Shown in pieces: positions 1 to 27,109 of a stretch of 64,000 nt of DNA. Position numbers and translations under genes: made by a program. Each line of letters opens with the position of its first letter. Position 1 is the first letter of the stretch. The notes under the pieces are model-generated. The model was not told the origin of the DNA. It made no database searches and saw only the letters and a program-made list of their open reading frames with translations. The stretch is from a bacterium (lineage in GTDB: Bacteria; Patescibacteriota; Minisyncoccia; Phycocordibacterales; UBA1006), in NCBI GenBank assembly GCA_030433255.1, contig JAUIMI010000001.1, forward strand, positions 23,378 through 87,377. Direction: 5' to 3'.

Positions 1-41
1 CTTGTTTGGGATTTTAGTAATTATCTCTATAATAGAATTAT

Positions 42-236
42 ATGAATACAGAACTAAAACGACCATCATGGGATGAATATTTTATTGAAATCATGTATAT
101 GGTTGGGAAACGTGGAACCTGCGATCGTGGTCAGGTTGGATCAGTTATCACCCGTGATAATCGTATATTGGCAACAGGGTATGCTGGAGCTCCATCAGGC
201 ATTGCACATTGTGATGATGTCGGGCATGAAATGCAT
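42..236 (+). pseudogene. dCMP deaminase (ComEB-like) 5' fragment, interrupted after ~64 codons; the ORF runs on to 335 through element-derived sequence
   Basis: N-terminal RPSWDEYF...GTCDRGQVGSVI..ILATGYAGAP.G.AHCDDVGHEM matches the dCMP/cytidine deaminase N-terminus. Similarity stops after HEM at ~233 and the zinc motifs HAE/PCxxC are missing from this ORF. Confidence 0.6.
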
Positions 237-303
237 ATGGTTACGCATGACGGTGGAAGTACATCCAAATCTTTGATGAAGTTCGACAATATTATATCAA
301 ATG

Positions 304-329
304 AAAACCCTTCAAAAGAAGGGTTTTTT
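304..329. terminator. Hairpin AAAACCC-n10-GGGTTTTTT, bidirectional terminator-like
   Basis: Perfect 7-bp GC-containing stem with flanking A/T runs at the end of the minus-strand lipoprotein gene. Confidence 0.45.
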
Positions 330-344
330 AATTAAAATTTTAGA

Positions 345-1469
345 CTACTTATACCAAGTATCAGTACCAGGAACTGAAATTGGCCATCCAGAACCAAATG
401 GTCGCACACTAGGAACTACATTATCAATATCTACCACTAACACTCCACTTACATAGAAATCATCATTAAAAACTGACCACGTGTTATACACATTTGCAGG
501 CCATCTTTGACCTCGTTGAAAAACTACCTGAGCATTATCTTGATCTGCATTACCTTCATCAGTAACAATATAATTTTTATACTGCTTGAATGATTTAATT
601 TCGGCAGCATCAGCACAGCCAATGGTAAAAGTTTTAATATGATTAGGGTCAGTATCCCTGGTATCTAAGTACGCTCTAGGTAAACTAGATGCAGCATAGT
701 GGACATTTGGGACTCCATTAATATATTCACTATCATCTAGATATGTTCCTGGACCAAGGCTAGAATTTGAAGAATTATTCAAATTAAAATCAGGTTCAAA
801 CGTTACATTATCAGACCACTCACCAAATGGATCATTTGTAATCCAAATCATAGCTGTTAGTAGGTAACGTTTGCCAGGATAAGAAGTAGACTCTTTAATA
901 CGATAACCATAAGCATCTGGAATCCATGAATCAGAAGATCCATTTCTTTGAGAAAAATTATTTGATTCTCTTCTTACATCTGGAATACTCTGTTTCTCTG
1001 AACGAATCACCTTGGATGATGAAAAAATCTCATTTACCTTGTTCTCATCAAGAGAAACATTTGTAATCATCATTTCCGATATATTATAAAGTTCTTGACT
1101 TCGAGAAACTGAACCGCTTGATTTTGATACATATTTTCCTATTTGTATCTCAGGCTCACTTTCTAAACCACTAATGCCCTTGTTAATTGTCTCATTAAAG
1201 GTAATTTGATTAGAATTTTCTGTTAACGGAACAAAGCCACGAAATGGTGTTCCTCCTAGTGAAAAATTATGTGTCACAACAATCGAGGATTTACTAATAC
1301 CCAATTGATTTATTTGTGACTCTAATTCCGAATAAGAAATAGGTTTTTCAAATAAAACTTGAAAATTAGATTCAGTATCAACTGCTGATTGCTCTTGCGA
1401 GAGGTCTTCATCTTTTGAACAAGAAGTTATCATTGCTGAAATTGCAATGATCATAAGAAATTTTTTCAT
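345..1469 (-). CDS. Hypothetical lipoprotein (signal peptide + lipobox ITSC)
   Basis: The N-terminus MKKFLMIIAISAMITSCSKDE is typical of a lipoprotein signal. No recognisable catalytic motif. Lies within the inserted element. Confidence 0.5.
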   Translation of the reverse strand: MKKFLMIIAISAMITSCSKDEDLSQEQSAVDTESNFQVLFEKPISYSELESQINQLGISKSSIVVTHNFSLGGTPFRGFVPLTENSNQITFNETINKGISGLESEPEIQIGKYVSKSSGSVSRSQELYNISEMMITNVSLDENKVNEIFSSSKVIRSEKQSIPDVRRESNNFSQRNGSSDSWIPDAYGYRIKESTSYPGKRYLLTAMIWITNDPFGEWSDNVTFEPDFNLNNSSNSSLGPGTYLDDSEYINGVPNVHYAASSLPRAYLDTRDTDPNHIKTFTIGCADAAEIKSFKQYKNYIVTDEGNADQDNAQVVFQRGQRWPANVYNTWSVFNDDFYVSGVLVVDIDNVVPSVRPFGSGWPISVPGTDTWYK

Positions 1470-1549
1470 AAAAAAGTATTTAATTGTTTATAGAACAAAA
1501 TTGTTCGAAGTAAGATTAACTTATTTCTTTAAAAATGTAAAATAATAAC

Positions 1550-2005
1550 ATGAAAATTTTACGAACTTATTTAAAGAAAATTATCATCTCTTTAATTGTA
1601 TATATAATACTAAGATATATTCTCCTTAATATAATAGGATATAGCCATCTTATTAACTCTGATTATCTAACACTTATATTAATTTTTATTAGTCCGCTTT
1701 TACATATATTTTCATATCTATTTCTTATAAAAAAGATATTCAAAAAAGACATATTATCTAATATAATTCTATATCTATTTAACAATAACATTTACTTCTT
1801 ATATTCATATCTTTCATATCATCTCATTTATGAGTCTTTTTACGTATATCAGCCATTTTTTACAGGCAACCCTCCTGAAGATTTTATACTAGTTGATGCT
1901 TTTAGTAGTGTTCATTTTATGAGTAAGATGAGTTTTATATTATTTATTACAAGTTTTTTTCTTCTTATATTATTTATTACTATAAGAAGAAAATATTTTA
2001 AATAG
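1550..2005 (+). CDS. Hypothetical small membrane protein (very hydrophobic, I/L/F/Y-rich)
   Basis: ORF in an extremely AT-rich stretch with several predicted TM helices. It could be spurious. Confidence 0.3.
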   Translation: MKILRTYLKKIIISLIVYIILRYILLNIIGYSHLINSDYLTLILIFISPLLHIFSYLFLIKKIFKKDILSNIILYLFNNNIYFLYSYLSYHLIYESFYVYQPFFTGNPPEDFILVDAFSSVHFMSKMSFILFITSFFLLILFITIRRKYFK

Positions 2006-2516
2006 CATTAATTGTATTCAAAATATCTTGGATCTTTTTTGAATACAACTCCCCAACCTTCACTCTATAAAACTTAATACCAACTGAATTCAAAATATCA
2101 TCCTTAATCTTGTCATACTTTCCTTGTTTTTCTGTATCATGTGATTTTCCGTCAAGCTCAATAACTGCAAGGATATTTCCATAATGATTATCTAAAATTA
2201 CAAAATCAAGATGTTTTGATTTAATATAATTTCTTTTAATACCTTTCTCTTTCCAATCAAGTGATTTCTTTGCACTAACGATATCTTCCAATCTTACTTT
2301 TGAAAGAATCGTATATTGATTATTATTTTGTTTCACTAATTCATTGAAAAAAGTTTTCTCTGATTGAGTAAAGAAATATTTTTTAAGGGTGAAATATGGA
2401 CCAATATTATCTATTGGTTTTTTATCTATTTCAGAGTTATTTTCTGAAGATTTTAATTTCTGAATAACGATGTATGCAATGAATACAAGAGCAACAAGAA
2501 TAAATAGTGATTTCAT
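1998..2516 (-). CDS. DUF2726-like (restriction-endonuclease-fold/NERD-like) domain protein with N-terminal TM helix
   Basis: Pattern HLDFVILD...ILAVIELDGKSH...KDDILNSVGIKFYRV resembles the DUF2726 signature (DFVI.D..xxAIELDxxxH...D..L...GI...R). Confidence 0.4.
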   Translation of the reverse strand: MKSLFILVALVFIAYIVIQKLKSSENNSEIDKKPIDNIGPYFTLKKYFFTQSEKTFFNELVKQNNNQYTILSKVRLEDIVSAKKSLDWKEKGIKRNYIKSKHLDFVILDNHYGNILAVIELDGKSHDTEKQGKYDKIKDDILNSVGIKFYRVKVGELYSKKIQDILNTINAI

Positions 2517-2744
2517 AATATAACTGGATTATTTGATAAATGAACCCAGCACAAAACTCCCCACAGAGAGTTCTGAGCAAAGCTCACATATCCGTTTCCA
2601 GATACGACCAGACGAAAGCGAAAAGTGAACCCCTATGAGGAGTTTTCTACTTTCGTCTGGAATTTTTACACCATACCTCTTTCAAGGGTTAGGTTTATCA
2701 ATTTCGTATTTAATTACCTATATTTTAATATATAATTTTTATAT

Positions 2745-3584
2745 ATGGAAATAACTCCTGAAAATAAACAAATACTTAAAGTCATTAATGCACTTATTGA
2801 AAAACGACATAACTCTAAATACATCAATGAATGCCCATTTTCTGTTGTAACTCTTAAGCACCTAGAATTAATAGATCTTGATTGTTTTGAAGCATCACGA
2901 CTTTTTAATGATTTAAAAAATTACGAAGCTATTGAATTAACCAATGAAGAAGAATTTAAGAAAGTGGTCGAAATGATCGGTGAAGAAATAATGATAAAAG
3001 TTGATGAGAAGATTAAAAAAGGAAAAAGCTCATATAAACAAGTACAAAAGAATCTTGAAAATATGATGAAATATGTAGGAATTGAACCTACTAAAGAAGA
3101 ACTTAAAAAAGATATCACCCTAAAGGAATTAGAATCTTTTAAAAAACGAGTAACAAATACCATTGATGAGGAACTTCTGAAATCAAAAGAAATTGGTATT
3201 TATAAGATCAAGAAAGATCTCCATAAGATGCGAAGATATATCTTAGGTGGGCGTGATTTCTATAATATGGATAAAGAGTTTTTAAGTTTAGATGTAGAAA
3301 CTCAAATTATTGATTTAAACGGTAGACTTATTTCAATTAAACAAAATCCTCCCCTGAAAGGACAATATCTCCTTGAATACATTTTAAAAAATGATGCAAA
3401 GAAAAAATATCCTCTTGATGAACTTGTAGAAGATAATGTTATTCCAGACGGAAACAAAAGGACATATATTGATGCTGTGATCAATTTAAATAAACGAGTT
3501 AAAAAAGAAACTCACGGAGACATCAATGACTTACTTAAAAAATCAGGAGATTATTATTTCATCAAAGATCAATATACTATGTAG
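2745..3584 (+). CDS. Hypothetical protein (element cargo)
   Basis: Clean 279-aa ORF, K/E-rich, no recognised motif. Followed by hairpin AACTCGCAG-n15-CTGCGAGTT at ~3637-3670. Confidence 0.45.
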   Translation: MEITPENKQILKVINALIEKRHNSKYINECPFSVVTLKHLELIDLDCFEASRLFNDLKNYEAIELTNEEEFKKVVEMIGEEIMIKVDEKIKKGKSSYKQVQKNLENMMKYVGIEPTKEELKKDITLKELESFKKRVTNTIDEELLKSKEIGIYKIKKDLHKMRRYILGGRDFYNMDKEFLSLDVETQIIDLNGRLISIKQNPPLKGQYLLEYILKNDAKKKYPLDELVEDNVIPDGNKRTYIDAVINLNKRVKKETHGDINDLLKKSGDYYFIKDQYTM

Positions 3585-3964
3585 TTGAGTAAAATACTCA
3601 ACTAAGCTCAACAAGTGAAATGAAAAAATAAAACTCGCAGGGACGCCTCTGGCTGCTGCGAGTTTTATCATGCACAATTACTCACAACAACTCATGAAAA
3701 AATATCAAGACTACATGAAAACAACTCATGGGATTTTTGTTGATGATGATACGGCTCAAATATACCTCGAAAGTTTCGCCACCGTCTTCCTTGCATTACG
3801 AAAACTAATCACAGACGAATAGACTTTTCTTTCGTGGTACTTGTAAATCAAAACTATGAATATCGTCAATGAGCGAAGCGAAATTGATGATGTGAATAGT
3901 TTTGATACAAGTACATGCACAGAAGAAAGTCTATGTGATTACTTTTATTAATCTAATATTATTT

Positions 3965-3995
3965 GTTGCCGTAGTATAGTATTACCTACGGCAAC
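3965..3995 (+). other. Putative rolling-circle origin stem-loop: GTTGCCGTAG-[TATAGTATTAC]-CTACGGCAAC, loop containing nonanucleotide TAGTATTAC
   Basis: Perfect 10-bp inverted repeat with an 11-nt loop. The loop contains the exact circovirus/nanovirus nonanucleotide (nick site), 21 bp upstream of the rep start codon. Confidence 0.7.
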
Positions 3996-4016
3996 TTCTG
4001 GTAACACAAAAACTAT

Positions 4017-4940
4017 ATGACCAATAAAACATCACGAAATTACATATTTACCGTGAACAATTATACGCACAGAATGTTGAAAAAATTTAAACAAATAGCC
4101 AAGTCTTTAGACAAGCATAAATATATTTGCTTTGGACTTGAAGTAGCCCCTGAAACTGGAAACAAACATATTCAGGGATACATTCAATTAAAAGATAGGA
4201 AGAAATTTACCTTCCTTCATGATTATTTTGATCTCCACAAAAAAGGAAAGCAGGATAAATTCCATATTGAATATGCCAATGGCAGTGTTAAGCAAAATCA
4301 ACAATACACCTCTAAAACAAGAGATGAGGACGAAGTACCTAATAAGGTATGGCTTGAATACGGAACACCTACAAAACAAGGTAAACGAACAGATCTTACA
4401 GACCTGAAAGAAAAATTACGAAAAGATCCAAAATCTTTGAGAGAACTTATGAAAGAAGATGTAGTAAGTACACAACAAATGAGATTTGTTGAGGGAATGC
4501 AAAAATATATGTTCTCACACAGAGACCCTAAAAAACCACCAAAGGTGTTTTGGATTTATGGATCAACAGGAAAAGGAAAAACAAAATTAATTTACGACTC
4601 ATTTGAAAGTGTTTGTCCGGTATCAGATTTTAAATGGCCTGGAAATTTCTACTTTCAAGAAGAGTGCCTGTTATTTGATGACTTTCGAGCAGGAGATATT
4701 CCATTCCATACCCTACTTAAGATAGTTGATAGGTATCCTTATACCTTAGCTGTAAAAGGAAGTTTTGTACCACTTAATTCTCCATTCATTGTTATTACTA
4801 GTCCGAAATCAATCAGAAAAACTTTTAACGAATTTCATGAAGACTTAAAACAACTTGAACGAAGAATTAAGGCTGAGATTAATATTGATGCTGAAGAAAT
4901 TGAAAACCTTAAAGAATACATAGGACTAGAAGATTTCTAG
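4017..4940 (+). CDS. rep: Rolling-circle replication initiator Rep, CRESS-DNA/circovirus-like (HUH endonuclease + SF3 helicase)
   Basis: Motif I FTVNNY, motif II KHIQGY (HxQ), motif III YTSK, GTPTKQGKRTDLTDL (cf. circoviral G.P..QGKRSDL), Walker A GSTGKGKT, Walker B LLFDDF, motif C ITSP. Confidence 0.85.
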   Translation: MTNKTSRNYIFTVNNYTHRMLKKFKQIAKSLDKHKYICFGLEVAPETGNKHIQGYIQLKDRKKFTFLHDYFDLHKKGKQDKFHIEYANGSVKQNQQYTSKTRDEDEVPNKVWLEYGTPTKQGKRTDLTDLKEKLRKDPKSLRELMKEDVVSTQQMRFVEGMQKYMFSHRDPKKPPKVFWIYGSTGKGKTKLIYDSFESVCPVSDFKWPGNFYFQEECLLFDDFRAGDIPFHTLLKIVDRYPYTLAVKGSFVPLNSPFIVITSPKSIRKTFNEFHEDLKQLERRIKAEINIDAEEIENLKEYIGLEDF

Positions 4941-4966
4941 TTTTTTATTCACTATTATTAATTTTA

Positions 4967-6574
4967 TTGTATAGTCAAAATATGAAGTATATAATCTACG
5001 CACGTAAATCAACCGATGACTCAGGGAAACAACAATTATCTCTTGAATCTCAAATTACTGAAATGCGTGGACTCGCAAAAATGAATCATCTTGAAATAGT
5101 AAAAGAATTTCAAGAATCACAATCAGCAAAAACTGCAGGACGACCAATCTTTGCAGAAATGTTGCAATACATTCAGGATGGACATGCTGATGCTATTTTA
5201 TGTTGGAAATTAGATAGATTATCACGTAACCCTATTGATACCGGAACTATAACCAGTTTGTTACAAAATAACATCATCAAAGAAATCAAAACCTACCAAA
5301 AGACTTACTACCCTGGTGATAATGCTATTGTAATGGCAGTTGAGCTTGCTATGGCTAATCAATACTCACGTGATCTTTCTACAAATGTAAAACGTGGACT
5401 ACGTACGAAACTCAAAAATGGAGATTGGCCATGGGTTGCACCAATTGGGTACTTAAATGACACAATTAACAAAAGTATTGTGATTGATCCAAAATCATCA
5501 AAATATATCAAGAAGGCTTTTGAGATGTATGCAACTGGGAACTATTCGTATAAAGATATTGAAAAGATTCTCTATGAAAAAGGATTCCGAAGTAAATCAG
5601 GTAAAAAAGTAAGCCATGCCCTTCTCCATCATTCACTAACTAATACTTTCTATTATGGAATTATGGAGCGCCAAGGAGAATATTTTAAAGGAAAGCATAA
5701 ACCAATCATTTCAAAGAAATTATTTGATGAATGTGAAAAGATCCGACTAGGTCATAACAAACCACGACGCAAGAAGCATGTATTCCCCCTGCGAGGTCTT
5801 TTAACTTGTGAGGTATGTGGTTGCCTCATTACTGCTGAGAAACAACGAGGAATTGATTACTATCACTGTACCAATGGAAAAGGTATTTGTGACCAAAAGA
5901 AAAAATTTGTTAGAGGAGAAGAATTAGAAAAACAAATCTTCAATGCCGTGGAAGATGTATGTTTCGATGAAGATATGATTGAAATTATCCATGAAGCAGC
6001 CTTAGAAAAATTCTACTCAGAAAATAAGAATAGAAATGATCATAAGGAAGAGTTAGAGCAGGAGTTACATTTACTTAAATTAAAAGAAGACAAATTATTA
6101 GATTCTATGTTAGATGGAAAAGTTGATAATGATATCTATGAAAAGAAATCAAAATCACTGAAACTAGAACGTCTTGATTTAGAACAAAGAATCGCTCGAA
6201 ATAGTGTAAATATTAAAAAAGAGCTATCTACTTTCGAACAAGCTAAAAATGCTCTAAAAACCTTATATACCTTCAAGATAGCCTATTCTGATGCTGAACC
6301 CATCAAAAAACGTGAGATTTCTTTTGAGTTACTTTCGAATATGACTCTAAAAGACCGAAAAGTCCTTACTGTACAACACAAAAGCCCCTATTCACTACTC
6401 GTAAATAAGGGTAAAAACGTTAGTTTTTCTGAAATGCTCACAACACTGTATTCGAACAACACATGCAGAACAAAATGCTATTGTTTCTGCAGCACGACAT
6501 GGCGTAGCTGTCGAAGGTGGAACATTGTATTGCAAAATGACACCATGTTATACCTGCGCAAAACTTATTATTAA
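4967..6574 (+). CDS. Large serine recombinase (resolvase/invertase catalytic domain + recombinase domain + zinc ribbon); the last ~45 codons are read from host DNA across the right junction
   Basis: Catalytic Ser motif IYARKSTDDSGKQQLSLESQ; Zn ribbon CEVCGC...YYHCTNGKGIC; C-terminal coiled-coil region. The ORF tail overlaps the dCMP deaminase 3' fragment in another frame. Confidence 0.85.
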   Translation: MYSQNMKYIIYARKSTDDSGKQQLSLESQITEMRGLAKMNHLEIVKEFQESQSAKTAGRPIFAEMLQYIQDGHADAILCWKLDRLSRNPIDTGTITSLLQNNIIKEIKTYQKTYYPGDNAIVMAVELAMANQYSRDLSTNVKRGLRTKLKNGDWPWVAPIGYLNDTINKSIVIDPKSSKYIKKAFEMYATGNYSYKDIEKILYEKGFRSKSGKKVSHALLHHSLTNTFYYGIMERQGEYFKGKHKPIISKKLFDECEKIRLGHNKPRRKKHVFPLRGLLTCEVCGCLITAEKQRGIDYYHCTNGKGICDQKKKFVRGEELEKQIFNAVEDVCFDEDMIEIIHEAALEKFYSENKNRNDHKEELEQELHLLKLKEDKLLDSMLDGKVDNDIYEKKSKSLKLERLDLEQRIARNSVNIKKELSTFEQAKNALKTLYTFKIAYSDAEPIKKREISFELLSNMTLKDRKVLTVQHKSPYSLLVNKGKNVSFSEMLTTLYSNNTCRTKCYCFCSTTWRSCRRWNIVLQNDTMLYLRKTYY

Positions 6575-6704
6575 CGCAGGGATAAGGCGAGTGGTAGCAG
6601 CAAAAGATTATCATGCCGGGGCACGTAGTAAAGAAATTTTTACCGAAGCAGGTATCGCATACGAATTACTTGATTCAAATATTGAATCATATGATAACCA
6701 ATAA
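6423..6704 (+). pseudogene. dCMP deaminase 3' fragment (zinc-binding HAEQNAI and PCYTCAKLIINAGIRRV motifs); no start codon of its own
   Basis: Translating codon phase 0 from 6423 gives VFLKCSQHCIRTTHAEQNAIVSAARHGVAVEGGTLYCKMTPCYTCAKLIINAGIRRVVAAKDYH...*. Together with 42..233 this makes a full-length (~150 aa) ComEB-like deaminase. Confidence 0.65.
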
Positions 6705-6709
6705 TATTT

Positions 6710-7039
6710 ATGATTGATTTACAACAATTACAAAAAGAAACCTATCAAAATAAATTAGACAAAGGTTTCAATACAACTGATATTGCTTTGGAGTTTTGTC
6801 GTGCCCACGAAGAATTATCAGAAGCATTTAAAAAATACAACCAAGATGAAGACGGAGTAGGTGAAGAGTTGGCTGATGTAGCTATTTTTCTATTAGGTAT
6901 TTCTGAAATTATGGGGTTTGATTTAGAAACAGAATTAGTAAATAAAATGGAAAAAAACAAAAAACGAAAATACACCACACACATCAATAAAGATGGAAAA
7001 AAAGTATTCATGCGCGTAGCAACAGAAGAAGATAAATAA
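6710..7039 (+). CDS. MazG-like nucleoside triphosphate pyrophosphohydrolase (small all-alpha NTP-PPase)
   Basis: EExxE...EELADVAIFLL metal-binding motif arrangement of MazG/HisE-type NTP-PPases. Confidence 0.6.
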   Translation: MIDLQQLQKETYQNKLDKGFNTTDIALEFCRAHEELSEAFKKYNQDEDGVGEELADVAIFLLGISEIMGFDLETELVNKMEKNKKRKYTTHINKDGKKVFMRVATEEDK

Positions 7040-7064
7040 AAAACCAGCAATTACTGGTTTTTTA
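7039..7064 (+). terminator. Rho-independent terminator AAAACCAG-caatta-CTGGTTTTTT
   Basis: Stem plus T-run immediately after the stop. Confidence 0.6.
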
Positions 7065-7117
7065 TTTTATTTATGATTAAATTAATAAAAAGAAGTTTAA
7101 TTAAAAAAGAATAAAAT

Positions 7118-7453
7118 ATGCCGTTTATTAGAATTATTTCTCAAGATAAATTATCTGATCTAAATAGAAAATTATCTATTAAAAAATTAATAAAAAGAAT
7201 AAAATACTATACTTCACAGGAATTAAAGGTAAATACTTTTTCTGTTGAAGTTACTGAAGCTGGTTTATATGACGAACTCGCAAGTGAGATTGAAATTCGA
7301 ATCACAGCAGATCAAAATCCTATAAGAAATCCTCGAGTGGATATGTATGCTTCAAATATTGAAAAAGATTTAAGTTCTCATACTGAGTATAGAACTAAAT
7401 GTAGAGTTTTTCTTTTTTTAGAAAGAATTGGTTTTGATCAAGAGAAAGGGTAA
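7118..7453 (+). CDS. Hypothetical small protein
   Basis: 111-aa ORF followed by a strong terminator. No recognised motif (begins MPF..., a tautomerase-like start is speculation). Confidence 0.35.
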   Translation: MPFIRIISQDKLSDLNRKLSIKKLIKRIKYYTSQELKVNTFSVEVTEAGLYDELASEIEIRITADQNPIRNPRVDMYASNIEKDLSSHTEYRTKCRVFLFLERIGFDQEKG

Positions 7454-7458
7454 TTATA

Positions 7459-7494
7459 AGAGCCAATTTTGCAAAACAAAATTGGCTCTTTTTA
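7459..7494 (+). terminator. Rho-independent terminator AAGAGCCAATTTTG-caaaac-AAAATTGGCTCTTTTT
   Basis: Perfect 14-bp inverted repeat followed by a T-run. Confidence 0.65.
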
Positions 7495-7553: not shown

Positions 7554-8765
7554 ATGAAAGATACAAAGATAAAAAATCTACTCGCGGCAGAAAAAAAACG
7601 TCAAAAAAAAGTGGTTAATTTGATTGCATCAGAGAACTATGTATCTGATGATGTGCTCAAGGCTCTTGGTTCAGAAACGACAAACAAATATGCGGAAGGA
7701 TATCCAGGAAAACGATACTATGCAGGAAATGTTATTGTAGACCAAATTGAAACCTTGGCGCAGGAACGTGCATTAACATTATTTAAACTTAATCCTAAAA
7801 AATGGGGGGTTAACGTACAACCACTTTCAGGTTCACCAGCAAATATTGCTGTGTACCAAGCGTTAATAACACCAGGTGCAAAAATTATGGGAATGGATTT
7901 AGCTCAAGGAGGACACCTTACTCATGGACACAATGTGTCATTTTCTGGAAAATTCTGGAAACAAGTCCCATATACCTTGGACAAGAAAACAGAAAAATTA
8001 GACTATGATGCACTGCTTACATTAGCTAAAAAAGAAAAACCAGCCATTATTGTCGCAGGGTACACCGCTTATTCACGAAAAATTAGCTGGAAAAAAATGC
8101 GCGAAATTGCAGACACCGTTGGTGCATATTTATTGGTTGATATGTCACATATTGCAGGGTTAGTTGCAGGTGGAGAACATCCAGCACCATTCAAATATGC
8201 GCACGTTGTTACCACAACAACCCACAAAACATTACGTGGTCCACGTGGAGGAATGATTTTTGCACCAAAAGATGTTTTTATAGAACGAACCTTAAAAAAT
8301 GGAACGCTAAAAAAAGAAAGTATTTTTGATCTCATTCAAAAATCAGTTTTTCCTGGTATGCAAGGCGGACCACACATTAACCAAATTGCAGGAATTGCTG
8401 TGGCACTAAAGGAAGCAAACACGGCATCATTTAAAAAATATGCTGGGCAGGTGGTAAAGAATACTAAAACTTTAGCAAATGAATTAAAAAAACTTGGTTG
8501 GAGAATTATTTCTGGTGGAACTGATAATCATGTATTTTTAATGGATGTATGGAATGATGGGAAAGGTCTTACAGGAAAAGAAGCTTCAGATATATTAGAA
8601 GCTGCCGGAATTATTGTAAATATGAATACGATTCCATATGACGCGCGGTCCCCATTTAATCCTTCTGGTATCCGTATTGGTTGTGCAGCTGAAACAACGC
8701 GTGGTAAAAAAGAAAAAGATATGCTACAACTTGCTCGCCAAATTGATAAAATTTTGCGAAAATAG
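7554..8765 (+). CDS. glyA: Serine hydroxymethyltransferase
   Basis: YAEGYPGKRYYAGN and the PLP-lysine region VVTTTTHKTLRGPRGG. The start is taken at MKDTKIKNLL (7554), not the upstream ORF start 7428, which lies inside the terminator. Confidence 0.9.
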   Translation: MKDTKIKNLLAAEKKRQKKVVNLIASENYVSDDVLKALGSETTNKYAEGYPGKRYYAGNVIVDQIETLAQERALTLFKLNPKKWGVNVQPLSGSPANIAVYQALITPGAKIMGMDLAQGGHLTHGHNVSFSGKFWKQVPYTLDKKTEKLDYDALLTLAKKEKPAIIVAGYTAYSRKISWKKMREIADTVGAYLLVDMSHIAGLVAGGEHPAPFKYAHVVTTTTHKTLRGPRGGMIFAPKDVFIERTLKNGTLKKESIFDLIQKSVFPGMQGGPHINQIAGIAVALKEANTASFKKYAGQVVKNTKTLANELKKLGWRIISGGTDNHVFLMDVWNDGKGLTGKEASDILEAAGIIVNMNTIPYDARSPFNPSGIRIGCAAETTRGKKEKDMLQLARQIDKILRK

Positions 8766-8769
8766 AATT

Positions 8770-9876
<1,107 letters not shown>

Positions 9877-23533: not shown

Positions 23534-26500
23534 ATGAATACAGAAAAAAACAACACGTCGAAAAAATCAAAAACAGCTCAATCAGAGGAATCTATTCTTT
23601 CTTTTTGGCAGGAACATAATATTTTTGAAAAATCTTTAGACAATAAAACTAAAGGTGATTTTGTCTTTTACGATGGACCTCCTTTTGCAACTGGGTTACC
23701 ACACTATGGACACCTCCTTGCAGGAACGATTAAAGACATTATTCCACGATATAAAACCATGCAGGGATACCGCGTGCCACGAAAATGGGGATGGGACTGT
23801 CACGGATTACCAATTGAAAACCTGATTGAAAAAGAACTCGGGCTTGAAACCAAAAAAGATATCGAAGAGTACGGTATCGAAAAATTCAATGAAGCTGCAC
23901 GAAACTCAGTGTTACGTTATGAATCAGAGTGGAAAAAATATGTTCCACGTTCTGGACGTTTTGTTGATATGGATAATGCATACATGGCAATGGATCCATC
24001 GTACATGGAATCTATTTGGTGGGTATTTTCACAGTTGTATAAAAAAGACCTCACCAAAGAAGGATTCAAGGCAATGCATTTATGTCCTCGGTGTGAAACG
24101 ACTCTTGCAAATTTTGAGGTTAACCAAGGGTACAAAGATGTTACTGATATTTCAGTAACAGCAAAATTCGAATTAAAAGATGAACCTGGAACATACGTTT
24201 TGGCATGGACGACGACTCCGTGGACTCTGCCGGGGAACGTTGCCTTAGCGGTTGGTGCTGATATTGAATATGTAAAAATTCAAGATATGGGAGAAATAAC
24301 AACTAACACACCTCCATCTGGTGAATATAACTCTCCAAGTCTTGATTTTTACTATGTTTCCAAAGAGATTTTTTTAAAAAATTCTTCTGATGATTTAAAT
24401 GATGGTTTTTATTCTTGGAAAGAAAAACCGAATAATACTTTTAAAATAATTGAAGAAATTAAAGGTTCTGAATTAGTTGGTAAATCATACGTCGCACCTT
24501 TTGATTACTATCAAAATGACCCAGAAGTTGAAAATAGTGAAAATGGATGGAAAATTCTCGCAGCAGATTTCGTAACCACCGAAGATGGAACGGGAATCGT
24601 ACACATTGCACCAGCGTTTGGTACTGATGATATGCAGTTAGGGCAAGATAATGCACTACCATTTATTCAACATGTAGCTAAATCAGGAGCTTTTAAACAT
24701 GTGTTTGCTGAAACCATTGATGGCGGTGATTTTGCGGGCATGTTGGTAAAACAAAAAAACGATCTCATGTCGACTGACATCGAAATCATTAAACGACTCG
24801 CACACGATGGGAAACTCTTTTCAAAGAAAAAATTAGTTCACAGCTATCCACACTGTTGGCGTTGTGATACTCCACTGTTAAATTATGCGACATCATCATG
24901 GTATGTTGATGTACCTAAAATTAAAGACCAATTAATTGAATCAAATAACAAGGTACATTGGGTCCCACAGCACGTTGGGCAAGGGCGTTTTGGAAAATGG
25001 CTTGATGGTGCACGTGATTGGGCGCTTTCTCGTTCTCGATTTTGGGGAACACCACTCCCTATTTGGCAATCACAAGACGGAGAAGAAACCTTTGTTGCTG
25101 GTTCATTCGAAGAATTACTTTCTCGTATTCAAACATCTGGAAATACCTATATTGGATTACGTCACGGTGAATCAGAATCAAACGTAAAAGGAATTATTAA
25201 TGCCCAATTAGGAATTCATAACCCTCTTACTGAAAAAGGACGTCAACAGGTTACAGATGCGCTTTCAGAAATTCCAACAGATATTGATTATATTTTTGTT
25301 TCTCCAATGCAGAGAACACAAGAAACAGCAGATATTATTAAAAACCACTTAAAATTGTCAGATGATGCTGTGATTACTGATGAGCGCATCACAGAAACAA
25401 ATCTTGGTTCACAGTGGGAAGGTAAATTATGGGAAGATGCACACAACCGAGAGTACTTTGCCAGCAATGCAGATTTCATTGATTTAAAATTAGATGAAGA
25501 TGCAGAATCTATTAATGATGTATATAAACGCTCAATGAGTTTTCTCTTTGAATTAGAAGAAAAGTATCACAATAAAAAAATATTAATCATTTCTCATGGT
25601 GGTATTTTACGAGCTATGGAATTTGCTAATTATCGATATGGACGACCGAATATGGCTCATGCATTTTGGGATGAGTATCGATTACCAAAAAATGCACATC
25701 CGTTACTCTTTAATTTTAAACCGTTTCCGCATAATGAGGATTTCGTTATTGATATACATAAACCATATATTGATAATGTTACCGTTGTTTCTGAATCAGG
25801 CGAAAAACTCAGAAGAGTTCCAGATGTATTTGATGTATGGTTTGATTCCGCATCAATGCCGTATGCACAACAACACTATCCATTTGAAAACAAAGAATCA
25901 TTTGAATCCGCCTTTCCTGCACAGTTTATTGCAGAAGGGTTAGATCAAACACGTGGATGGTTTTATGTTATGACCGTAATTGGTAATGCTCTCTTTGATA
26001 AAACTCCTTTTGAAAATGTAATTGTGAATGGATTAATTTTGGCAGAAGATGGTAAAAAAATGTCAAAATCACTCAAAAATTATCCTGACCCATATGATAT
26101 GTTCGATTCGGTTGGGGCAGATGCAATTCGGTTGTACATGATTAACTCACCTGTGGTGCGTGCCGAAGAATTTGCTTTTTCGGAAAAAGGTGTACGTGAA
26201 GTTTCATCAAAGGTAATGGGGCGCTTACGAAATATCGTCTCACTCTATGAGATGTATAAAAATGAAGTTGAACACGATACGATTTCAGATTCAAAAAACA
26301 TTCTTGATGAATGGATTGTGGCTCGACTGACTGAATTAGAAAACGAGGTACGGAAAGGGCTCGAAAGTTACGAACTTGACCGAGCAGCACGACCAATTTT
26401 TGATTTTGTTGATGATTTCTCAACATGGTACATTCGTCGTTCACGTGATCGATTCAAAGGTGATGACAATGAAGATAAGATATTAGCATTAGGTACAACA

Positions 26501-27109
26501 CGCTACGTGTTAATAGAAACAGCAAAAATTATTGCACCATTTACTCCGTTTGTTGCTGAAGAGATTTGGCAGACACTAAAAAATGATGAAATGGAAGAAT
26601 CAGTACATTTAGCACAGTGGACTGAAATGGATATTCATAACACTCAAGGTATTGAAACCATGAAGAATATACGTGAACTTATCACCCAAGGTTTGCAGTT
26701 ACGTAGTGACGCTGGAATTAAAGTTCGGCAACCATTACAATCGTTTACTTGTGATCTAAATAACATAGAAAGAGATTACTCTGAACTGATTGCTGATGAA
26801 CTAAACGTAAAAGACGTCCTCGATGGTGAATTACGTTTAGACACAACAATTACCCCTGAACTTCAAGCTGAAGGAAATATGCGTGAATTATTGCGTCAGA
26901 TTCAGTCTTTGCGAAAAAGCGCAGGGCTAGAGCCACATGATGTTATCAATTTACACATTCAAACGAGCAGAGAAGGGCAGGTGTTAATGGAAACCTTTAG
27001 TGATGAAATTAAATCAACCGCTGGAATTAATGAATTTAATTTTACCCATAATGATGGTGATGAAATTACTGTTGAAGATTTAGTATTTATTATTGCTATT
27101 GAGAAATAA
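23534..27109 (+). CDS. ileS: Isoleucyl-tRNA synthetase with an inserted histidine-phosphatase domain
   Basis: HYGH, WTTTPWTLPGN, WRCDTP, RVPDVFDVWFDS, KMSKS. The 1191-aa length exceeds typical IleRS because of an insertion at ~aa 537-730. Confidence 0.9.
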   Translation: MNTEKNNTSKKSKTAQSEESILSFWQEHNIFEKSLDNKTKGDFVFYDGPPFATGLPHYGHLLAGTIKDIIPRYKTMQGYRVPRKWGWDCHGLPIENLIEKELGLETKKDIEEYGIEKFNEAARNSVLRYESEWKKYVPRSGRFVDMDNAYMAMDPSYMESIWWVFSQLYKKDLTKEGFKAMHLCPRCETTLANFEVNQGYKDVTDISVTAKFELKDEPGTYVLAWTTTPWTLPGNVALAVGADIEYVKIQDMGEITTNTPPSGEYNSPSLDFYYVSKEIFLKNSSDDLNDGFYSWKEKPNNTFKIIEEIKGSELVGKSYVAPFDYYQNDPEVENSENGWKILAADFVTTEDGTGIVHIAPAFGTDDMQLGQDNALPFIQHVAKSGAFKHVFAETIDGGDFAGMLVKQKNDLMSTDIEIIKRLAHDGKLFSKKKLVHSYPHCWRCDTPLLNYATSSWYVDVPKIKDQLIESNNKVHWVPQHVGQGRFGKWLDGARDWALSRSRFWGTPLPIWQSQDGEETFVAGSFEELLSRIQTSGNTYIGLRHGESESNVKGIINAQLGIHNPLTEKGRQQVTDALSEIPTDIDYIFVSPMQRTQETADIIKNHLKLSDDAVITDERITETNLGSQWEGKLWEDAHNREYFASNADFIDLKLDEDAESINDVYKRSMSFLFELEEKYHNKKILIISHGGILRAMEFANYRYGRPNMAHAFWDEYRLPKNAHPLLFNFKPFPHNEDFVIDIHKPYIDNVTVVSESGEKLRRVPDVFDVWFDSASMPYAQQHYPFENKESFESAFPAQFIAEGLDQTRGWFYVMTVIGNALFDKTPFENVIVNGLILAEDGKKMSKSLKNYPDPYDMFDSVGADAIRLYMINSPVVRAEEFAFSEKGVREVSSKVMGRLRNIVSLYEMYKNEVEHDTISDSKNILDEWIVARLTELENEVRKGLESYELDRAARPIFDFVDDFSTWYIRRSRDRFKGDDNEDKILALGTTRYVLIETAKIIAPFTPFVAEEIWQTLKNDEMEESVHLAQWTEMDIHNTQGIETMKNIRELITQGLQLRSDAGIKVRQPLQSFTCDLNNIERDYSELIADELNVKDVLDGELRLDTTITPELQAEGNMRELLRQIQSLRKSAGLEPHDVINLHIQTSREGQVLMETFSDEIKSTAGINEFNFTHNDGDEITVEDLVFIIAIEK
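25142..25723 (+). other. In-frame histidine phosphatase (phosphoglycerate-mutase-like) domain inserted within ileS
   Basis: YIGLRHGESESN (RHG catalytic motif) ... ILIISHGGILRA (second catalytic His), between the IleRS LSRSRFWGTPLPIW and DIHKPYID segments. Confidence 0.65.

Follow-up and report, generated by a model that had tools for sequence, protein, structure and literature searches.

We found that positions 266-6439 of a 64,000-nucleotide stretch of DNA (contig JAUIMI010000001.1, positions 23,378 to 87,377; hereafter the window) are an integrated mobile element of 6,174 bp. We propose to read this element as an integrative, plasmid-like rolling-circle replicon whose host is a bacterium of the Patescibacteria (candidate phyla radiation, CPR), with the Rep protein encoded at 4017-4940 as its replication initiator. 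We put the probability of this reading at about 0.78. A first-pass annotation of the window had taken the rep open reading frame (ORF) alone. It is one gene of the element, which has its own origin hairpin.

The rep gene (4017-4940, + strand) is a single 307-aa ORF with an ATG start and no internal stop. Judged by its sequence, the product is a Rep of the circovirus/nanovirus family that combines a HUQ endonuclease (aa 1 to about 115), a linker/oligomerisation region (about 116-170) and a superfamily 3 (SF3) helicase (about 175-285). The translation contains the nuclease motifs FTVNNY (aa 11-16), KHIQGY (aa 50-55) and YTSK (aa 97-100), the linker motif GTPTKQGKRTDL (aa 116-127) and the helicase motifs GSTGKGKT (aa 182-189), LLFDDF (aa 218-223) and ITSP (aa 260-263). 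Pfam placed Viral_Rep (PF02407) on aa 7-100 (E 4.2e-12, 46.6 bits, curated cutoff 26) and RNA_helicase (PF00910) on aa 179-262 (E 2.9e-5, 24.9 bits, cutoff 21.5). The profile search that the first-pass annotation had proposed as a check therefore returned both expected families above their cutoffs. The best relative in the PDB found by phmmer was the Rep of porcine circovirus 2 (PCV2; 7lar, E 2.2e-18), and the alignment runs from motif I through motif C (Rep 7-268 against 15-261). In this alignment FTVNN pairs with FTLNN, HIQG with HLQG, YTSK with YCSK, GKRTDL with GQRSDL, GSTGKGKT with GPPGCGKS and FDDF with IDDF. The RRI motif (arginine finger) aligns to PCV2 as well.

An alignment of 25 homologues showed which of these residues are invariant. 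In the nuclease and linker they are E42, H51, Q53, Y97, K100, R124 and D126, and in the helicase G182, G185, G187, K188, D221, D222, R282 and R283. Motifs I-III with the catalytic Tyr, both Walker motifs and a circovirus-like linker signature, all reported by the first-pass annotation, are thus present. Y97 and the metal ligands align to PCV2, and so do Walker A and Walker B, whose key residues are invariant. The protein matches Viral_Rep rather than an unrelated family, and the catalytic Tyr and His (Y97, H51) are not misaligned. Motif II, which had been described as HUH, is indeed there but has the form HUQ.

An AlphaFold2 model of Rep built with 14 homologues was confident for the nuclease domain alone (predicted local distance difference test score, pLDDT, 75-87). 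Foldseek matched the predicted nuclease domain to circovirus and nanovirus Reps with template modelling (TM) scores of 0.80-0.84, including PCV2 (6wdz, 0.82), duck circovirus (7kii, 0.84) and faba bean necrotic yellows virus (FBNYV; 6h8o, 0.83). This domain superposes worse on geminivirus Rep or plasmid RepB than on these proteins. Public gene calls begin Rep at M20, giving a 288-aa protein in which motif I would be lost; we prefer the 307-aa start because the N-termini of homologues back it. The ratio of nonsynonymous to synonymous substitutions (dN/dS) of rep is 0.09, measured against an 83%-identical homologue in the 80%-identical element of locus L003. The value for the recombinase gene in the same comparison is 0.08, and the two ratios indicate strong purifying selection on both genes.

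A putative double-strand origin lies 22 bp upstream of rep. This stem-loop (3965-3995, + strand) has a perfect 10-bp stem, GTTGCCGTAG/CTACGGCAAC, and an 11-nt loop, TATAGTATTAC. Within the loop, at 3977-3985 on the rep-sense strand, is the nonanucleotide TAGTATTAC, which is that of circovirus and nanovirus origins. Folded as DNA the hairpin has a free energy (dG) of -10.4 kcal/mol (z -4.9), and none of 200 shuffled sequences was equally stable. The nonanucleotide by itself is unremarkable, with one match in the window where 0.6 would be expected, so it counts because of its position and conservation and not because of its frequency. All 16 related loci with sequence upstream of Rep have a stem-loop at the equal position, and in 15 of them the loop contains (T/C)AGTATTAC; the hairpin of L003 has TAGTAATAC instead. 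The stem sequence varies with the clade, and two forms occur among the loci, GTTGCCRTAG, which shows one compensatory change of G:C to A:T, and GAAGTCGGGG. Iteron-like repeats, GGCAAC (3990-3995) and GGTAAC (4000-4005), stand at the right of the hairpin, and the other clade has GGACA…GGACA. The Rep-binding sites of circoviruses are arranged likewise, as repeats beside the right arm. The combination of HUQ, a DD Walker B, a Pro in motif C and an origin with TAGTATTAC is distinctive.

Adjoining the origin on its upstream side is an imperfect hairpin of about 150 nt (3795-3952, + strand). For the stretch 3790-4000, which covers both hairpins, the DNA fold has a free energy of -42.2 kcal/mol (z -9.2). 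The larger hairpin is kept in L003 (z -10.2) and in L004 (z -6.5), and compensatory changes were found in 10 of its 64 predicted pairs.

The element is inserted in a host gene for deoxycytidine monophosphate (dCMP) deaminase and disrupts its ORF by a TC crossover. The 5' part of the gene (codons 1-75; 42-265, + strand) ends at the crossover dinucleotide TC at 264-265, within attL (roughly 225-304). The attR core is the second TC, at 6438-6439, and is followed by the 3' part of the gene (SQHCIRTTHAEQNAI...; 6438-6704, + strand), such that one copy of TC stands on each side. Accordingly, the Pfam domain dCMP_cyt_deam_1 is split, with its N-terminal half before the element and its C-terminal half after it. 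We found the empty site, an uninterrupted deaminase gene of 162 aa, in L015 (ENA) and L016 (Logan). L015 comes from a strain 97.5% identical in nucleotide sequence to that of the window. Window 2-265 aligns to L015 4206-4469 at 97.7% and window 6438-7041 to L015 4468-5071 at 97.4%, and on L015 the two flanks overlap by exactly 2 bp, TC. No repeat other than this 2-bp core was found at the junctions when the flanks were compared with the empty sites of L015 and L016. The attB sequence is …ggaagcacaTCacaacactgtattcgaaca… (shorter form …GGAAGTACATCACAACACTGTATTCGAACA…), the attL junction reads …ggaagtacaTCcaaatc… and the attR junction …gaaatgcTCacaacac…, from which attP is reconstructed as …ttctgaaatgcTCcaaatctttgatgaagttcgaca… (shorter form …TTTTCTGAAATGCTCCAAATCTTTGATGAAGTTCGACA…). 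A 2-bp TC crossover is the signature of a large serine recombinase (LSR), and an LSR is encoded directly downstream of Rep.

These junctions bear on whether the element belongs to this chromosome at all. Reps of CRESS DNA viruses (those with circular, Rep-encoding, single-stranded DNA) are common contaminants and metagenome assemblies do contain chimeric joins, so a eukaryotic CRESS virus could have been mis-assembled into a bacterial contig, or the window could hold a decaying endogenous copy of one. However, two independent Logan assemblies, L001 and L002, reproduce the element with its junction (the right junction of L001 is identical), and the junctions are exact to 2 bp against the empty site. 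The element agrees in GC content with its host, and many metagenome-assembled genomes (MAGs) have the module of origin, Rep and recombinase embedded in contigs that reach 380 kb. A relic would also be hard to reconcile with the Rep dN/dS and the intact motifs and origin. We consider an artefact or relic very improbable. Rep as a transposase of the IS91, Helitron or Replitron type was ruled out, as the element is bounded by crossover sites of the recombinase and has its nick site in the interior.

The LSR gene (4967-6574, + strand) has the Pfam domains Resolvase (4.4e-24), Recombinase (9.5e-16) and Zn_ribbon_recom (2.1e-7) and matches a PHROG integrase (4.3e-85). The nearest NCBIfam models, CcrA/B/C and XisF, were all far under their cutoffs. 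Residues 1-491 are encoded by the element, to 6439; in the integrated state the ORF continues out of frame into deaminase DNA as far as 6574. The attP core sits within the 3' end of the LSR gene, and integration swaps the C-terminal tail of the protein. In the reconstructed circular form the LSR has 503 aa and ends in ...SEMLQIFDEVRQYYIK. Uninterrupted LSR homologues in L003, L050 and L051 share a tail motif, ML-x3-(D/R)EVR(T/Q), their tails being …STMLACLREVRT… in L003 and …SSMLGVVDEVRT… in L050/L051. These matching tails support the reconstruction of attP and of the tail. L050 (5691-5727 of an 881,714-bp contig) and L051 (1605-1641) hold LSR homologues of 33-41% identity that have an intact attP-type tail and no adjacent Rep. 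By sequence, the recombinase/att module thus exists also apart from the Rep replicon, in L050 on a chromosome-sized contig. A scan of JGI metagenomes for the attP-type pattern gave two LSR homologues with intact tails and no circle.

The right arms of the att sites differ in spacing. The distance between the core and a TTCGAAC-like block is 11 nt where the arm derives from attB and 16 nt where it is of attP type; the block of the attP-type sequences (the window reconstruction, L003, L050 and L051) reads TTCGA(A/C). In 2013 Rutherford et al. reportedly described motifs for the zinc-ribbon domain of serine integrases that are offset by 5 bp, and spacings of 11 and 16 nt fit this. Eight related loci have a tRNA gene whose 3' end adjoins that of the LSR gene (tRNA-Gln in six, tRNA-Asn and tRNA-Ser in one each). 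The junction of these tRNA loci is 11 nt away from the T-arm block, (T/C)TCGAAC, which is the spacing of TTCGAAC in the deaminase attB. Given this equal spacing, the deaminase site, a conserved stretch of the gene, looks like a mimic of a tRNA T-arm. The likeness would offer a concrete case of serine-integrase retargeting.

Rep and the recombinase belong to a family of elements. A protein search with Rep returned 186 homologues, about 110 of them at 44-100% identity and many on contigs of 20-380 kb; those with a name were labelled Candidatus Paceibacterota. A scan of GTDB, with one genome per species and a search pattern made from 14 closer Reps, the 25-sequence alignment being too divergent, gave 11 loci. 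These lie in MAGs of Paceibacteria, Nomurabacteria, Kaiserbacteria, Minisyncoccia and Saccharibacteria and in one MAG labelled Crocinitomicaceae. In all, more than 14 public loci, most of them in MAGs of Patescibacteria, have the module of origin, Rep and recombinase, and its usual insertion site is the 3' end of a tRNA gene. Rep is followed directly by an LSR homologue (37-85% identity) in 11 of 12 GTDB and metagenome loci, and the contig of the twelfth ends inside rep. The gene after Rep in L020 is a confirmed LSR, while in L019 a 515-aa ORF was judged by recombinase size only and not by family. In L021 (4275-6622) a TAGTATTAC hairpin and Rep are followed not by an LSR but by an excisionase-like HTH_17 gene and a tyrosine integrase. 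Integrase modules have thus been exchanged within the family.

A family element at tRNA-Asn is found in locus L004 (JBLIKX010000007.1), which belongs to the MAG with the label Crocinitomicaceae (Bacteroidota). The dCMP deaminase and arginyl-tRNA synthetase (ArgRS) of the MAG with this label are 74-82% identical to the Patescibacteria-type proteins of the window. The label is probably a case of mis-binning or misclassification.

The host of the window element is, by its gene content, likewise Patescibacteria. The window encodes ArgRS, isoleucyl-tRNA synthetase (IleRS), a further class II aminoacyl-tRNA synthetase, RecJ and a DEAD-box helicase. Among homologues with a name, those that match ArgRS and the deaminase best belong to MAGs of Candidatus Pacebacteria/Paceibacteria, Minisyncoccia and the 'Patescibacteria group'. 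Our sequence comparisons thus identify the window as cellular chromosome of a Paceibacteria-like member of the CPR. A jumbo phage as host was ruled out by the aminoacyl-tRNA synthetases and RecJ in the window and by SecE-NusG-L11 on the contig of a relative.

L003, a 6.5-kb JGI contig, has its P and P' arms contiguous, as in attP. The ORFs at its two ends would join in a circle, with an N-terminal fragment of a DUF2726-like protein running off one end and a C-terminal fragment at the other. This suggests that L003 is an episomal form. No terminal repeats were found in the family contigs of 5-7 kb (L003, L019, L020 and L021) or in L004.

We propose the following cycle, in which the parts and their conservation come from the data and the steps follow by analogy with circovirus Rep and LSR systems. 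The LSR, probably with a directionality factor, would excise a double-stranded circle of 6,174 bp, and excision would restore both the deaminase gene and the LSR's own C-terminal tail. Rep would then bind the iteron-like repeats beside the hairpin and, as in circoviruses, nick the loop of the + (rep-sense) strand at TAGTATT/AC. In this step Tyr97 would cut, E42, H51 and Q53 would hold the metal, and Rep would stay covalently on the 5' end. The predicted cleavage substrate is single-stranded TATAGTATTACC, cut after T7 of TAGTATT/AC. Unwinding would be done by the SF3 helicase of Rep, with a polymerase of the host extending the 3'-OH meanwhile. After one round Rep would cut and rejoin the strand to release a single-stranded circle. 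This circle would become double-stranded again by synthesis that may be primed at the adjoining hairpin of about 150 nt. That this hairpin is a candidate single-strand origin for complementary-strand synthesis is conjecture.

Beside that conjecture, several other observations weigh against a replicon of this kind. The claim that all catalytic positions are intact in one uninterrupted ORF stands for the ORF, the Tyr and the metal ligands and fails at motif C, where ITSP aligns to ITSN of PCV2 and the sensor Asn is replaced by Pro. P263 is invariant within the close family (alignment of 14 closer sequences). All CRESS-DNA viruses keep the Asn, as do pCRESS2/3, and pCRESS1 and pCRESS4-8 do not (Kazlauskas et al. 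2019, Suppl. Note 1, PMC6668415). Helicase activity is therefore assumed for Rep, with sequence conservation as its sole basis, and the AlphaFold2 model of the helicase domain is poor (pLDDT about 30). No excised circle of the window element was observed; L003 is of attP type but has no terminal overlap. Among the ORFs of the element we identified no single-strand-binding protein or partition genes, and no recombination directionality factor was recognisable by homology. A capsid that we do not recognise is possible, as four of the seven ORFs are without a family.

The last point leads to the alternative that the element is the provirus of a true single-stranded DNA (ssDNA) virus of CPR bacteria, with orf279, the 374-aa lipoprotein or other cargo as a capsid of unrecognised fold. 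Rep, its HUQ motif and the TAGTATTAC origin are all of circovirus/nanovirus type, and the ORFs without a known family leave room for such a protein. Outside the family, the closest Reps (35-38% identity) are on the small circular replicons L017 (1954 nt, with a 127-nt terminal repeat) and L018 (3642 nt, with a 30-nt terminal repeat). A second ORF of L017 weakly resembles the coat protein of satellite tobacco necrosis virus (STNV; E 0.0017, below cutoff), and replicons of this type may be true CRESS viruses. That the nearest outside relatives are small circles of 1.8 and 3.6 kb, one with a weakly coat-like ORF, would suit a virus. However, no ORF of the element matched a capsid or phage structural family in Pfam, PHROGs or NCBIfam, and orf279 is predicted, with low confidence, to be all-helical, unlike jelly-roll capsids. 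The non-core genes are wholly different among the window, L003 and L012, which suits cargo but not an essential capsid. IMG/VR held no close relative of the family among its virus contigs, the best matches being 26-33% identical and from CRESS genomes of the ordinary kind, 1.8-4 kb in size. The known bacterial homologues, the pCRESS elements, are capsid-less too. We regard a provirus as unlikely.

Rep might instead act mainly as a relaxase-like nickase that mobilises the excised element, which would then be an integrative mobilisable element in which Rep does not serve vegetative replication. The element is small and integrative, and relaxases of the HUH Rep type are reported for some integrative mobilisable elements (PMC7563843). 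Such a role would not explain the full SF3 helicase domain of Rep or the viral-type origin, whose position directly upstream of rep is that seen in replicons. Unlike pCRESS, the element also had no Pfam match to a coupling protein, an FtsK-like translocase or a MOB gene. We think mobilisation as the main role somewhat less probable still than a provirus, and retain the rolling-circle replicon as the preferred reading.

The closest described systems to this replicon are the pCRESS elements, especially the p4M-like cluster (pCRESS1-3). These are capsid-less integrative elements of bacteria with a virus-like HUH and SF3 Rep, often at tRNA genes and sometimes at protein-coding genes (Kazlauskas, Varsani, Koonin & Krupovic 2019, PMC6668415). 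The window element is like them in its virus-like Rep, its site-specific integration and its lack of a capsid gene. pCRESS3 also has the HUQ form of motif II (PMC6668415), and p4M RepA was the sole PLSDB match to the element Rep (30% identity, E 6e-8). The integrases of pCRESS are tyrosine recombinases with direct-repeat att sites (PMC6668415), whereas the element uses an LSR with a 2-bp crossover. The signature cargo of pCRESS is an FtsK-like ATPase with a single-strand-binding protein, MOBV or a phytoplasma copy-control set (PMC6668415), and Pfam found no FtsK-like ATPase, single-strand-binding protein, MOBV or copy-control gene among the ORFs of the element. pCRESS1-9 are reported from four phyla, and Patescibacteria, Parcubacteria and Saccharibacteria are unmentioned in the supplement of that paper (PMC6668415); the host of the element, a member of the Patescibacteria, falls outside these four phyla and belongs to one that goes unmentioned in the paper as well. 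The motifs differ as well, the Walker B having DD where pCRESS2 has EE, and motif C having Pro and not the Asn of pCRESS2/3.

Circoviridae and Nanoviridae share with the element PF02407, HUQ, the GxRxDL linker, the DDF Walker B and RRI, and PCV2 is the best structure match. They also share the identical TAGTATTAC nonanucleotide on the rep-sense strand and repeats beside the right arm. In contrast to these viruses, the element has a Rep only about 28% identical to theirs, a Pro in motif C and no capsid gene. It includes a recombinase and cargo and sits in the chromosome of a bacterium, while their hosts are eukaryotic. Circovirus and nanovirus genomes are smaller than the 6.2-kb element. LSR elements of the phage and SCCmec (staphylococcal cassette chromosome mec) type are alike in having Resolvase, Recombinase and a zinc ribbon, in duplicating no target beyond the 2-bp core and in interrupting a host ORF that excision would restore. 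Unlike those systems, the element couples its LSR to a rolling-circle Rep and an origin, and its attP core is inside the LSR coding sequence.

By pairwise BLASTP, Rep scored 88 bits against PCV2 (about 28% identity), 136-169 against uncultivated small circular replicons and 60-77 against pCRESS2/3. The pCRESS part of this comparison used two pCRESS2 and two pCRESS3 rows of a trimmed alignment and left out pCRESS1 and pCRESS4-9. The element resembles pCRESS with a different integrase and host phylum, and within these limits its Rep appears closer to the viral ones. Simple membership of pCRESS1-9, among which and CRESS virus Reps the first-pass annotation had proposed to place the protein, did not emerge. 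The shared HUQ motif, GxRxDL linker, DD Walker B and TAGTATTAC origin, the last of them identical, together with a Rep nearer than pCRESS3 in the same limited comparison, lead us to suggest, tentatively and as a doubtful rather than a favoured idea, that the origin-Rep-recombinase elements of Patescibacteria are the closest prokaryotic counterparts of CRESS-DNA viruses of the circovirus/nanovirus type. If this is true, the plasmid lineage that gave rise to that branch of eukaryotic ssDNA viruses, or that took it back in, resides in episymbiotic CPR bacteria. At its most extreme, the idea would make the elements themselves ssDNA viruses of these bacteria, with a capsid that we do not recognise.

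The replication module of eukaryotic CRESS-DNA viruses is considered to derive from plasmids of bacteria, and the element family may add a closer prokaryotic relative of the circovirus/nanovirus branch, as far as the limited comparison goes. The mobile elements of CPR bacteria are barely known, and with the locus come a further host phylum and an integration chemistry that is new. In a literature search on CRESS or Cressdnaviricota with Patescibacteria, on HUH plasmids of CPR bacteria and on CRESS with an LSR, whose coverage was not exhaustive, we found no description of the family. It is widespread and apparently undescribed. Patescibacteria are hard to manipulate, and a small, self-contained module of origin, Rep and recombinase with defined attP and attB would be a candidate from which to develop genetic tools for them.

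Two further genes of the element are conserved. The core gene orf279 (2745-3584, + strand), a candidate regulator or DNA-binding protein, has homologues at the equal position in L003 and L004 (37-39% identity) and in L012 (18%). It had no Pfam match, a profile search of the PDB gave noise only, and its single-sequence AlphaFold2 model was unusable (pLDDT 36.5). The small ORF orf50 (3670-3822, + strand) lies upstream of the origin, and tblastn matches to it were found upstream of Rep in L003, L004, L005, L007, L009, L011 and L012. Its dN/dS is 0.42 against L003. From its position orf50 is a candidate regulator or the candidate recombination directionality factor.

The other genes are variable cargo, namely a lipoprotein, a membrane protein and a DUF2726 nuclease-like protein with a LOOT leader. 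The lipoprotein ORF (345-1469, - strand; 374 aa) has a lipoprotein-type signal peptide (MKKFLMIIAISAMITSC), varies between elements and was not found in L003; it had no match in Pfam, PHROGs, PADLOC or NCBIfam. The ORF at 1550-2005 (+ strand; 151 aa) encodes a hydrophobic putative membrane protein with no family match in Pfam or PHROGs. Where the window has these two, L003 has two unrelated ORFs. With orf279 and orf50 they make up the four ORFs for which Pfam, PHROGs and NCBIfam gave no recognisable family. The gene at 1998-2516 (- strand) encodes a DUF2726/DUF559-type protein of restriction-endonuclease-like fold (Pfam DUF2726 E 8.4e-25, DUF559 4.8e-5) with an N-terminal transmembrane helix, and analogues of it occur in L007, L012 and L019. 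The cargo of L012 (3168-5454) includes a type IV restriction nuclease that is GmrSD-like and has an HNH domain, as well as an EcoRI-type adenine methyltransferase, and some elements of the family thus carry defence genes.

A LOOT RNA (Rfam RF03000) was found at 2574-2695 (- strand; 63.9 bits against a gathering score of 46.4), and the same RNA is present in two further elements, L003 (336-451, - strand) and L012 (6297-6413, + strand). All three are directly upstream of the small DUF2726/DUF559 nuclease-like gene and co-oriented with it. This suggests that LOOT RNA is a cis-acting leader of that gene or a small RNA tied to it. The locus thereby puts an orphan RNA on a mobile element, beside a DUF2726/DUF559 gene. 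LOOT RNA as the single-strand origin was not favoured, since its orientation to Rep varies (- in the window and L003, + in L012) and it always precedes the DUF2726/DUF559 gene.

Three features of the surrounding chromosome were also observed. About 432 bp between a MazG-like gene and the gene for serine hydroxymethyltransferase (SHMT), at 7042-7473, are missing from the 97.5%-identical L015 and from L016; this stretch holds one 111-aa ORF without a family (7118-7453), with hairpins on either side. The IleRS-like protein encoded at 23534-27109 (+ strand; 1191 aa) has a His_Phos_1 domain inserted at aa 542-695, inside its catalytic domain. Finally, the ORF at 8638-9876 (+ strand) contains a long perfect (Glu-Pro)n repeat, PEPEPEPEP…, at about 9090-9170, and its counterpart in L015 is shorter, at 364 aa.

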